DNA of 4,893 nt from a virus (IMGVR_UViG_2660238190_000007:1-4893), one strand, 5' to 3'. Shown: positions 1 to 4,893, numbered from the stretch's first letter. The notes: generated by a model from the letters alone, not told the origin. Numbers and translations are program-made.

Positions 1-546
1 ATGGAAGTCAACAAAAAGCAGCTGGCTGACATTTTCGGTGCGAGTATCCGTACCATTCAGAACTGGCAGGAACAGGGAATGCCCGTTCTGCGAGGCGGTG
101 GCAAGGGTAATGAGGTGCTTTATGATTCTGCCGCCGTCATAAAATGGTATGCCGAAAGGGATGCTGAAATTGAGAACGAAAAGCTGCGCCGGGAAGTTGA
201 AGAACTGCGGCAGGCCAGCGAGACAGATCTCCAGCCAGGGACTATTGAGTACGAACGCCATCGACTTACGCGTGCGCAGGCCGACGCACAGGAGCTGAAA
301 AATGCCAGAGACTCCGCTGAAGTGGTGGAAACCGCATTCTGTACTTTCGTGCTGTCGCGGATCGCAGGTGAAATTGCCAGTATTCTCGACGGGATCCCCC
401 TGTCGGTGCAGCGGCGTTTTCCGGAACTGGAAAACCGACATGTTGATTTCCTGAAACGGGATATCATCAAAGCCATGAACAAAGCAGCCGCGCTGGATGA
501 ACTGATACCGGGGTTGCTGAGTGAATATATCGAACAGTCAGGTTAA
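1..546 (+). CDS. nu1: Terminase small subunit (lambda gpNu1-like), apparently full length at 181 aa
   Basis: Complete ORF from ATG at 1 to TAA at 544-546. The translation (MEVNKKQLADIFGASIRTIQNWQEQGMPVLRGG...) matches lambda gpNu1 from memory along its whole length with only scattered substitutions. The N-terminal helix-turn-helix-like segment (QLADIFGASIRTIQNWQ) fits the cosB-binding domain. The 3' end overlaps the A start by 26 nt, as in lambda. Confidence 0.93.
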   Translation: MEVNKKQLADIFGASIRTIQNWQEQGMPVLRGGGKGNEVLYDSAAVIKWYAERDAEIENEKLRREVEELRQASETDLQPGTIEYERHRLTRAQADAQELKNARDSAEVVETAFCTFVLSRIAGEIASILDGIPLSVQRRFPELENRHVDFLKRDIIKAMNKAAALDELIPGLLSEYIEQSG

Positions 547-2426: not shown

Positions 2427-2451
2427 AAAGGCCGCCTGTGCGGCTTTTTTT
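2427..2451 (+). terminator. GC-rich hairpin followed by a T-tract in the D-E intergenic region (intrinsic-terminator-like)
   Basis: AAAGGCCGC-CTGT-GCGGCTTT forms a stem GCCGC/GCGGC (2431-2435 with 2440-2444), extendable by flanking A-T and G-U pairs, followed by TTTTTTT at 2445-2451. A second T-run at 2458-2464 lies just before the E start codon. Confidence 0.5.
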
Positions 2452-2464
2452 ACGGGATTTTTTT

Positions 2465-4318
2465 ATGTCGATGTACACAACCGCCCAGCTGCTGGCGGCA
2501 AATGAGCAGAAATTTAAGTTTGATCCGCTGTTTCTGCGTCTCTTTTTCCGTGAGAGCTATCCCTTCACTACGGAGAAAGTCTATCTCTCACAAATTCCGG
2601 GACTGGTAAACATGGCGCTGTACGTTTCGCCGATTGTTTCCGGTGAGGTTATCCGTTCCCGTGGCGGCTCCACCTCTGAATTTACGCCGGGATATGTCAA
2701 ACCCAAGCATGAGGTGAATCCGCAGATGACCCTGCGTCGCCTGCCGGATGAAGATCCGCAGAATCTGGCGGACCCGGCTTACCGCCGCCGTCGCATCATC
2801 ATGCAGAACATGCGTGACGAAGAGCTGGCCATTGCTCAGGTCGAAGAGATGCAGGCAGTTTCTGCCGTGCTCAAGGGCAAATACACCATGACCGGTGAAG
2901 CCTTCGATCCGGTTGAGGTGGATACCGGAGCTTTGTGGAAGCGTACAGCCGTCGGATTAACGAATTTCGCCTGGATCAACACATCCGGCGATACATATGA
3001 TATTTACGTTGAGATTGGCAATTATGCGACGAGTGTAAATATCCATTGGGATTGTACTACAAATGCGTCAGTTTCTATTTATACCTCGCCAACATATTCA
3101 GCGAGTAAGCCTTCCAGCGTTACCGGTGGTGTTGTTTATACGATGTATAGCTCACATCAGAAACCTACACCATCAGATATTGGAGCGCTGCCAACGACTG
3201 GAGGGACTATTTCAGGTCCGTTGTCTGTTACTGATGGGATCACCGGGGCACTGAAGGGGAACGCCGATACCGCGACGAAACTTGCGGCAGCCCCAAAAAT
3301 TAACGGTGTTAAGTTTGATGGCTCGGCGGATATTAACCTCACGCCGGAAAATATTGGTGCATTTGCCCGACGTTCGACGGGGGCTTATGCGGATTCGGAT
3401 GGAGCCGTTCCCTGGAATGCCGAATCAGGCGCTTACAATGTCACCCGCTCTGGCAACAGCTATATTCTGGTTAACTTCTATACCGGAGTCGGAAGTTGCC
3501 GGACCTTGCAGATGAAGGCACATTACAGAAATGGAGGTCTGTTCTACCGTTCCTCAAGAGATGGCTATGGTTTTGAGGAAGACTGGGCAGAAGTTTATAC
3601 CTCGAAAAATCTTCCACCAGAAAGCTACCCAGTCGGCGCACCAATCCCGTGGCCATCAGATACCGTTCCGTCTGGTTATGCCCTGATGCAGGGGCAGACT
3701 TTTGACAAATCTGCTTACCCGAAACTTGCAGCCGCTTATCCGTCAGGTGTGATCCCTGATATGCGTGGCTGGACGATTAAGGGCAAACCTGCCAGTGGTC
3801 GGGCCGTATTGTCTCAGGAACAGGACGGCATTAAATCGCACACCCACAGCGCCAGCGTATCCAGTACGGATTTGGGGACGAAAAACACATCGTCGTTTGA
3901 TTACGGAACCAAATCCACGAATAACACCGGGGCGCATACCCATAGTATTAGCGGGACTGCAAATAGTGCCGGTGCGCACCAACACAAGAGTTCCGGTGCA
4001 TTTGGTGGCACGAACACGAGCATTTTCCCTAATGGTTATACCGCGATTTCAAATCTAAGCGCGGGGATTATGAGCACAACAAGCGGTAGTGGCCAGACTC
4101 GTAATGCAGGGAAGACATCATCAGATGGTGCTCATACCCACTCGCTGTCCGGCACTGCTGCAAGCGCAGGCGCACACGCACATACTGTCGGTATTGGTGC
4201 TCATACGCACTCCGTTGCGATTGGTTCACATGGACATACCATCACCGTTAACGCTGCTGGTAACGCGGAAAACACCGTCAAAAACATCGCATTTAACTAT
4301 ATTGTGAGGCTTGCGTAA
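2465..4318 (+). CDS. Chimeric ORF of 617 aa: N-terminal 153 aa of major capsid protein E fused in frame to a 464-aa side tail fibre C-terminal region (Stf-like)
   Basis: ATG at 2465 gives [34 protein letters not shown]...[14 protein letters not shown], which matches lambda gpE residues 1-153 from memory. From 2925 the sequence no longer resembles E and encodes a tail-fibre repeat ([39 protein letters not shown]) and a C-terminus resembling lambda Stf ([69 protein letters not shown]...[31 protein letters not shown]). Stop is TAA at 4316-4318. The upstream ATG at 2438 lies inside the terminator hairpin and is rejected as the start. Confidence 0.85.
2924..2925. other. Deletion junction 2: E codon 153 joined in frame to the tail-fibre interior
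   Basis: The sequence follows lambda E through ...GTTGAGGTGGATA (to 2924). Lambda would continue TGGGCCGCAGTGAGG (MGRSEENN...), but the window continues CCGGAGCTTTGTGGAAG (TGALWKR...). The reading frame is preserved across the join. Confidence 0.75.
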
Positions 4319-4893
4319 TGGCATTCAGAATGAGTGAACAACCACGGACCATAAAAATTTATAATCTGCTGGCCGGAACTAATGAATTTATTGGTGAAGG
4401 TGACGCATATATTCCGCCTCATACAGGTCTGCCAGCAAACAGTACCGATATTGCACCGCCAGATATTCCGGCAGGCTTCGTGGCTGTTTTCAACAGTGAT
4501 GAGGCATCGTGGCATCTCGTTGAAGATCATCGGGGTAAAACGGTTTATGACGTGGCTTCCGGCGACGCGTTATTTATTTCTGAACTCGGTCCGTTACCGG
4601 AAAATGTTACCTGGTTATCGCCGGGAGGGGAATATCAGAAGTGGAACGGCACAGCCTGGGTGAAGGATACGGAAGCAGAAAAACTGTTCCGGATCCGGGA
4701 GGCGGAAGAAACAAAAAACAGCCTGATGCAGATAGCCAGTGAGCATATAGCGCCGCTTCAGGATGCTGTGGATCTGGAGATCGCAACGGAGGAAGAAACC
4801 TTGTTGCTGGAAGCCTGGAAAAAGTATCGGGTGTTGCTGAACCGTGTTGATACATCAACTGCACCGGATATTGAATGGCCAGCACTGCCGTAG
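4318..4893 (+). CDS. tfa: Tail fibre assembly chaperone Tfa (lambda gpTfa-like), 191 aa
   Basis: ATG at 4318 overlaps the stf stop as TAATG (4316-4320). Translation [79 protein letters not shown]... matches lambda Tfa from memory. Stop is TAG at 4891-4893. The last few codons differ from my recollection of lambda Tfa, which I think is slightly longer. Confidence 0.92.

Follow-up and report, generated by a model that had tools for sequence, protein, structure and literature searches.

An in-frame capsid-tail fibre fusion in a lambda-like prophage of Escherichia coli as a probable neutral scar of prophage decay

A 4,893-nucleotide stretch of viral DNA (IMGVR_UViG_2660238190_000007:1-4893; called the window here, by which the whole analysed stretch is meant) was found to be the left (late) arm of a lambda-like prophage in which the beginning of the major capsid gene E is joined, in a single reading frame, to the distal part of the side tail fibre gene stf. 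It is likely, at a probability of roughly 0.85, that this chimera is a neutral, inherited deletion scar in a decaying prophage and that it is in frame by chance. The junction is genuine and rare, and it has been inherited vertically or through recombination. On this reading its mechanistic weight is small, since what it records is ordinary prophage decay with no new function. Its value is rather as a clean and datable case of decay in a lambda-like prophage, with an early shared deletion of 15 kb followed by at least three later, nested ones; the deletions were all microhomology-mediated, and some of them made long chimeric open reading frames (ORFs) by chance.

Organization of the window

The window contains, in order, Nu1, a stump of A, a 5'-truncated C, D, the chimera and tfa, all on the forward strand; apart from the missing DNA, this order is collinear with that of phage 2H10. 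The small terminase subunit gene (Nu1/nohD type, positions 1-546) is intact and encodes 181 residues matching the whole of Pfam Phage_Nu1 (1-164 of 164, E = 4e-101); it is named nohD in the carrier genomes. The large terminase gene is reduced to a 5' remnant of about 104 native codons (A', 521-834), which matches only positions 3-63 of the 247 in the GpA_ATPase profile. Homology to the A gene of phage 2H10 stops at window base 834, and the A' ORF runs on out of frame into C as far as a stop at 877. At this point lies the first deletion scar (A'/'C, 831-834), out of frame and with a 4-bp overlap, where 3480 bp are gone relative to phage 2H10. The following head protease/scaffold gene ('C, an S49 peptidase matched by Pfam Peptidase_S49, 831-2067) has lost its first ~28 codons; it is 99.2% identical to phage 2H10 and keeps an internal ORF at 982-2067. 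In the carrier genomes, the PGAP annotation treats A' as a pseudogene lacking its C-terminus and 'C as one lacking its N-terminus.

The head decoration gene D (2077-2409, 110 aa) is intact (Pfam HDPD, E = 3e-20) and is annotated as head decoration protein. Between D and E is a native hairpin (2427-2451), which RNA folding gives as a 9-bp stem with a 4-nt loop followed by a run of Us (a T run in the DNA). Its sequence is the same as in phage 2H10, its fold energy is unexceptional (z = -0.96), and it does not appear in the output of the consensus terminator scan. That consensus scan of the window for promoters and terminators found no surplus of sites and no promoter close to the chimera. At the right-hand end, the tail fibre assembly chaperone gene tfa (4318-4893, 191 aa; Pfam Caudo_TAP, E = 2e-43) is intact. 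Its product matches phage 2H10 Tfa in length and at the C-terminus, and this exact protein belongs to a cluster of 9381 members. An earlier note made from this DNA had described a cognate tfa adjoining the chimera through a TAATG overlap. This overlap of the chimera stop and the tfa start is present at 4316-4320 and is the native arrangement, as in phage 2H10.

The chimeric reading frame and its two halves

The chimera extends from an ATG at 2465 to a TAA ending at 4318 and encodes 617 aa plus the stop. The longest ORF call is slightly longer (2438-4318, 626 aa) and begins at a GTG; the ATG at 2465 is that of lambda E. The earlier note had proposed one in-frame ORF at 2465-4318, and it is borne out both by the ORF list and by the parents, each of which is read in its native frame.

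The first half, E' (2465-2923), comprises codons 1-153 of the lambda major capsid gene in its native start context. It is 100% identical to residues 1-153 of lambda gpE (7SJ5/7VI9), and in a search of PDB sequences the identity breaks off exactly at D153, the endpoint that had been claimed. Pfam Phage_cap_E (PF03864) is matched at aa 5-155, over profile positions 1-147 of 329 only; homology to the HK97-fold capsid family is present over the E' part, and the profile is not matched at full length. The claim that the native E start is kept also holds, as the 81 bases that cover the D-E intergenic region and the E start context contain a single mismatch to phage 2H10, which lies more than 50 bases from the ATG. 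To judge from the order in which the elements of the HK97 fold follow one another, and from a clearly helical stretch at residues 103-138, E' would contain the N-arm, the E-loop, the spine helix and the first strand, with no A-domain. Having only this N-terminal part of the fold and lacking the A-domain, the product could not serve as a capsid subunit.

The second half is the distal part of a side tail fibre, as the earlier note had said. It begins with aa 154-232 (2924-3160), which are the C-terminal ~79 residues of a module of ~144 aa; in the parent fibre (P0028) this module spans residues ~524-667 and the break falls at T589, so that the deletion cuts the module 65 residues in. These module limits were drawn from the sequence and from mosaic limits rather than from a structure, and PHROG profiles extend upstream of the first fibre residue. 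That the fibre part starts inside a module was a point missed in the earlier note. Further along, aa 296-391 (3350-3637) form a gp37_C / Mu S-like distal domain, similar to the Mu tail fibre S structure (PDB 8JU3, E = 5e-23); Pfam gp37_C is matched at aa 314-380, below the cut-off. The remainder, aa 386-617 with the stop (3620-4318), is a complete distal tip made of collar, HxH needle and receptor-binding head. It aligns with chain residues 27-242 of the T4 gp37 tip (2XGF) at E = 2e-83 to 4e-83; the collar and every HxH repeat are conserved, and the central part of the head is divergent. Pfam Collar is matched at aa 391-438, and the Phage_fiber repeat is also matched in the C-terminal half.

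The chimera therefore has the collar, needle and tip of an Stf protein and a cognate tfa downstream, and it lacks a tail-attachment domain: although full-length parents have the prophage tail fibre N-terminal domain PF08400, the Pfam search did not match it in the chimera. With neither an attachment domain nor a shaft, and with a fibre part that starts inside a module, the product could not be a virion fibre. It is physically plausible, by analogy with the T4 tip, crystallised as a trimer whose folding depends on chaperones, that at most the C-terminal tip would form a trimer with the help of Tfa. C-terminal gp37 fragments of this extent are said to have been found by Bartual and colleagues in 2010 to trimerise when co-expressed with chaperones. 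AlphaFold2, run without an alignment (available homologues are 98-100% identical), gave the chimera a mean pLDDT of 30.8 and a pTM of 0.19, values too low to be informative about its fold. A search of PADLOC-DB 2.0 at E <= 0.01 returned zero families for the chimera, Tfa, 'C and D. The sole hit from that database was a helix-turn-helix match of Nu1 to mad1, which was regarded as trivial.

The deletion junction and its parents

The junction was placed by a three-way alignment of the window, the E gene of phage 2H10 and the stf gene of E. coli 55989. The match to the E parent extends as far as base 2924 (GTGGATA, at which it ends, followed by TGGGC) and that to the stf parent starts at base 2923 (..GGGATTA CCGGAG..), so that only the dinucleotide TA is common to both at the crossover. 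This second scar (E'/'stf, 2923-2924) is in frame, and the alignment upholds the position 2924/2925 that the earlier note had given. The parent fibre named above, P0028, has 1052 aa and a PF08400 N-terminal domain and occurs in many E. coli and Shigella sonnei genomes; its residues 589-1052 match residues 154-617 of the chimera with 100% identity. When mapped on phage 2H10, homology runs in E to base 7338 and resumes in stf from ~22,372, which gives an estimate of 15,033 bp (~15.0 kb) for the deletion. It took away the 3' portion of E, the genes FI, FII, Z, U, V, G, T, H, M, L, K, I, J and lom, and the 5' portion of stf.

Since E and stf share a reading frame in the parent, a deletion by a multiple of three yields a fusion, and the prior chance of this outcome is 1/3. 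With each half read in its native frame, a stop codon would not be expected in the fusion, and the length of the ORF is thus no more than chance gives. The locus has the features of a deletion scar: both halves are collinear with an intact phage, the genes between them are gone, the microhomology is short, and the prophage is otherwise defective.

Carriers of the fusion and its annotation

An identical junction was found in 5 of 5426 complete E. coli genomes, namely four IAL72xx strains from human faeces in Brazil and BS74R-D from a rectal swab in Switzerland. It is also present in two independent drafts from 2014, E. coli 3-105-05_S3_C2 and _C1, so that the search for this endpoint in other genomes, which the earlier note had called for, located it in seven other assemblies. 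When compared at the DNA level, all eight copies, the window included, are 100% identical across the ORF. The exact junction 39-mer is absent from JGI metagenome contigs and from the GTDB species-representative genomes, among which E. coli has a single representative. The E-stf allele is rare. The earlier note had named an assembly or cloning artefact as the finding that would undo the fusion, and no evidence in its support was found. The same junction occurs in four chromosome-level Brazilian assemblies, a complete Swiss genome and two independent drafts, and these assemblies differ elsewhere in the prophage. As independent projects and sequencing technologies arrive at one junction, an assembly artefact is excluded, with hardly any probability left to an artefact of whatever kind.

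In the complete carriers the prophage occupies lambda's attachment region, flanked by ybhC on one side and ybhB/bioA on the other. Lambda-like prophages carry their immunity and replication genes between the DUF1317 gene and ren. In the complete carriers there are no annotated genes between the DUF1317 gene and a truncated ren. These genomes retain ybcN-quuD, a porin gene, essD-rrrD-rzpD and iss. The carriers have truncated copies of A and C, and nothing is left between E and stf, from FI through lom. In the IAL strains and BS74R-D, tfa is cut at window base 4882 by AT-rich DNA of non-phage origin, which is followed by IS1. The window pairs the A'/'C scar with an intact tfa, a combination seen in no retrieved genome, so that its source would be a further variant of the series. 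A search with the ORF that spans the A'/'C junction gave only three short contigs, none above 1.7 kb.

The fusion is annotated in conflicting ways. The exact 626-aa protein has been deposited in GenBank (KDT31377.1/KDT43764.1) as a 'phage major capsid E family protein', whereas RefSeq (PGAP) divides the same ORF into two pseudogenes, a capsid protein without its C-terminus and a tail fibre protein without its N-terminus. Beyond this ORF, a sister scar discussed below is called a 452-aa 'terminase small subunit', and another head-gene fusion is called a 1407-aa 'terminase gpA endonuclease subunit'.

A nested series of deletions

The carriers differ in what has been lost upstream of D, as mapped on phage 2H10. 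In the 3-105-05 drafts, an out-of-frame deletion of 2.1 kb affects A and B, while C is full-length and there is no A'/'C scar. The window and the IAL strains share the 3480-bp A'/'C deletion. BS74R-D has a Nu1/C deletion of 4188 bp with an 8-bp overlap, and this one is in frame and produces an ORF of 452 aa. These upstream deletions are nested, each containing the previous one, and the E-stf scar is common to all carriers, which makes it the earliest event. In-frame scars in the lineage number 2 of 4, with 1.3 expected. The earlier note had itself cautioned that random deletion is in frame about one time in three and does not imply function, and the analysis gave no signal of a function. In the drafts, the DNA upstream of ynfO/ylcI holds a lysis module that is 99.7% identical to that of K-12 Qin, and the complete genomes have DLP12-type genes, indicating that this module took part in prophage-prophage exchange.

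Interpretation and alternative explanations

The most probable course of events would start with illegitimate recombination at 2 bp of microhomology, which would have removed ~15 kb between E codon 153 and codon 589 of the 1052-aa stf and would have landed in frame by chance. The resulting 617-aa ORF would then have been passed on unchanged in a small E. coli lineage, as further deletions took the upstream packaging genes. If the late operon were transcribed, ribosomes would probably begin on the ORF at the E start, which is unchanged. The earlier note had expected capsid-protein levels of translation whenever there is late transcription, and on the strength of the start context this is plausible. 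Late transcription of the prophage's own is doubtful, because the immunity and replication region is lost in the complete carriers and there would be no obvious route to its own Q; in principle the region could be activated by a superinfecting phage whose Q is compatible. As all copies are 100% identical, they hold no substitution pattern from which selection could be measured, and it is in this sense that we infer neutrality. No observation contradicts this account directly, though some weigh on the other side. The ORF has come undamaged through no fewer than three later deletions and an exchange of the lysis module upstream; its start context, naturally strong, is unchanged, and the gene for the cognate chaperone is intact; and 3 of 3 head-gene::'stf junctions examined are in frame, in a sample biased to annotated ORFs.

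One possibility, which we consider unlikely although not far-fetched, is a role for the 'stf-tfa remnant as a reservoir from which infecting lambdoid phages with homologous stf and tfa would acquire the tip by homologous recombination and so change host range. Recombination of lambda with two defective prophages, Rac and Qin, through homology in stf-tfa has been demonstrated experimentally (PMC3945230). Several sequenced lambdoid phages contain stretches that match the fibre and tfa parts at 91-97% identity, and tip alleles are mosaic between relatives. However, the right-hand homology is shortened in the IAL strains and BS74R-D, where tfa is cut at base 4882, and the proposal is silent on the E' half and on the reading frame. 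Such a role would not depend on the chimera being expressed. It would be a by-product rather than a selected function, and is compatible with the neutral scar. It is improbable that in-frame junctions have been favoured because translation through 'stf couples at TAATG to tfa, or to genes beyond it, with selection acting on Tfa expression. The overlap of stop and start has been conserved, Tfa is an intact and very widespread protein (the 9381-member cluster), and the head-gene::'stf fusions of this chimera, of K-12 StfQ and of strain 300709 are all in frame, but in-frame fusions are annotated as genes and so get noticed, which biases the sample. Forms of stf that are truncated and have no in-frame upstream partner do exist (for example P0017 and P0095), and the carrier genomes themselves truncate tfa. 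We know of no host function for Tfa, which is a further point against such selection. The prospect raised in the earlier note of fibre-only proteins from internal methionines fares worse and did not stand up. In-frame ATGs are found at aa 227, 350, 408, 433 and 536, but none has a Shine-Dalgarno pairing stronger than the 5th-percentile background of the window (-7.0 kcal/mol), with scores of -6.4 for M227, -3.2 for M350 and -2.2 for M408. The only stronger site precedes a TTG at aa 157 (-7.8) and has a spacing of 12 nt. Internal initiation is accordingly very improbable.

A reading of equally slight probability takes the chimera for a domesticated anti-phage factor, in which the Q protein of a superinfecting phage would trans-activate the late operon and E' would poison capsid assembly or titrate gpD or scaffold, or the tip would sequester Tfa. 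The N-arm and E-loop of lambda gpE contact the neighbouring subunit and gpD (PMC5701804). Going by the order of the HK97 fold, both would lie within residues 1-153, which are 100% identical to lambda gpE and follow an unchanged start context; quuD and late-region genes are intact upstream in the carriers, and the ORF has outlasted later decay. On the other hand, there is no PADLOC family match, just 5 of 5426 complete genomes carry the chimera, no sequence variation is present to show selection, an in-frame result is expected a third of the time, and a fragment without the A-domain may misfold and be degraded. The more specific form of this idea, that gpE(1-153) would act as a poison subunit displayed three to each Tfa-folded tip trimer and induced by a superinfecting Q, so that a scar became a superinfection defence, is slighter still in probability. 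Proof that the chimera is expressed and interferes with lambdoid phages would make it a case in which the decay of a prophage had directly given rise to a defence function, but the results offer no pointer to this.

Relationship to known systems

The neutral-scar reading places the chimera among fusions already present in sequenced genomes. A close counterpart is StfQ (b1547) of the Qin prophage in K-12 MG1655, which is likewise an in-frame deletion fusion of the 5' end of a packaging gene to the 3' part of stf, with tfa next to it through the same overlap. Codons 1-3 of terminase A give StfQ its opening VNI, after which it continues with the last ~317 residues of a side tail fibre, of which the last 259 are 92% identical to chimera residues 360-617. 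The surroundings are also related: as far as the StfQ junction, the K-12 nohA region shares 99.4% identity with window bases 1-529, and the backbone of the draft-genome carriers is 99.7% identical to K-12 Qin. The StfQ deletion is, however, larger, extending from A codon 3 to ~320 codons before the end of stf and leaving no capsid gene material, and it is an independent event in a different stf allele (96.3% DNA identity). A second relative, in a degraded prophage of strain 300709 (WP_126125397.1), is an in-frame A::Stf ORF of 1407 aa, again with tfa next to it, whose fibre part is 88% identical to that of the chimera. It differs in that its N-terminal partner is nearly the whole terminase large subunit, with ATPase and nuclease domains, in that more fibre is kept (entry is in the Ala/Ser-rich shaft after residue ~640), and in its chromosomal site. 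Other arrangements of the distal fibre include an unrelated N-terminal segment of ~105 aa fused in frame to the Stf fibre (P0064) and the truncated stf forms without a fusion partner mentioned above. One of these, P0017, has 597 aa and belongs to a 90% cluster of 84 sequences; at its locus a 245-aa gene on the opposite strand lies between lom and the stf remnant. An enrichment of tail fibre genes in incomplete prophages has been reported (PMC7744054). The BASEL 2025 paper, which mentions cryptic prophages and tail fibres many times, was set aside, as its topic is O-antigen glucosylation rather than fibre remnants.

Compared with the intact proteins, the chimera is identical to lambda gpE over residues 1-153 and is missing residues 154-341, more than half of the HK97 fold, and the D gene and D-E intergenic region upstream of it are of lambda type. 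A lambda-type Stf has a tail-attachment domain and an Ala/Ser-rich shaft, both of which are absent from the chimera, while the C-terminal 232 residues align with the T4 gp37 tip (2XGF) and differ from it in the central head region. With these resemblances to StfQ and to the fusion of strain 300709, the chimera is one more member of a familiar class of prophage fusion scars.

Deletion and module exchange in the carrier prophages

The Nu1-to-C interval has been shortened by three distinct, mutually nested deletions, seen at 7046/8394 of locus L005 from the 3-105-05 drafts, at 831-834 in the window, and at 13384-13391 of locus L002 from E. coli BS74R-D. These deletions measure 2.1, 3.5, and 4.2 kb, with overlaps at the junctions of 6, 4, and 8 bp, respectively, and their carriers are 99.9-100% identical in the remaining sequence. 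That the terminase/portal region was lost repeatedly on so short a timescale could mean either that it is a hot spot for deletion or that A/W/B are selected against. As a separate observation on this region, residues 1-55 of Nu1 (window 1-165), its N-terminal helix-turn-helix, match the PADLOC defence-system model mad1 (E = 1e-11); we read this as generic DNA-binding-domain similarity.

In the complete-genome carrier locus (L001), the prophage (399-12000) occupies the lambda attachment region, flanked by ybhC on one side and ybhB/bioA on the other. Both int and xis are present, and the prophage still retains iss (a bor homologue) as well as a porin gene located between quuD and essD; no genes are annotated between a DUF1317 gene and a truncated ren. 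The Nu1-to-tfa module of the complete genomes is preceded by a DLP12-type essD-rrrD-rzpD-iss region (L001 1-11449), while the same module in the 3-105-05 drafts is preceded by a Qin-type lysis and cold-shock-gene region (L005 1-5661), the switch between the two types of flank falling within ynfO/ylcI. The differing flanks are evidence that resident prophages have exchanged modules.

Divergence at the end of tfa also separates the carriers. The IAL genomes and BS74R-D have a tfa that is interrupted 11 bases short of its stop (window 4882/4883; L001 16882-17600), and beyond the break lies AT-rich non-phage DNA, followed by IS1A and a regulator of the AraC family. In contrast, tfa is intact (191 aa) in the window, whose source is therefore a further variant, absent from what the searched collections returned. 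Two other genomes with a truncated copy of the chimera's fibre differ in the cargo directly 3' of tfa, both on the minus strand: one encodes a MASE4-GGDEF protein (L012 8452-9783), and the other a 534-aa reverse-transcriptase and TIR protein (L013 3257-4861) that looks like a defence gene. There seems to be a hot spot for cargo directly behind tfa.

Fusion reading frames and their annotation

At window 2915-2935, the E'/'stf junction places an E-derived Shine-Dalgarno-like GAGGTG 12 nt 5' of an in-frame, stf-derived TTG (residue 157). This pairing, at -7.8 kcal/mol, is the strongest internal one in the chimera ORF; spacing and start codon are poor, and the site is probably meaningless.

Other in-frame fusions carry ordinary gene names. 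In BS74R-D, a 452-aa Nu1::C fusion (L002 12885-14243) containing Phage_Nu1 and Peptidase_S49 is named simply "terminase small subunit" by PGAP, a label that is an annotation trap. In E. coli 300709, a 1407-aa terminase large subunit::side tail fibre fusion (L007 2189-6412; WP_126125397.1), comprising nearly the entire terminase large subunit and the distal ~770 residues of the side tail fibre, is annotated as "terminase gpA endonuclease subunit". In K-12 MG1655, stfQ (L011 4886-5848, minus strand) encodes a protein with the N-terminus VNI, which corresponds to codons 1-3 of terminase A, and its start codon is the GTG of A, located within the end of nohA. StfQ thus opens with A codons from A's own GTG, which makes the reference "gene" stfQ an A'::'stf deletion chimera in its own right, with its two parts in frame.
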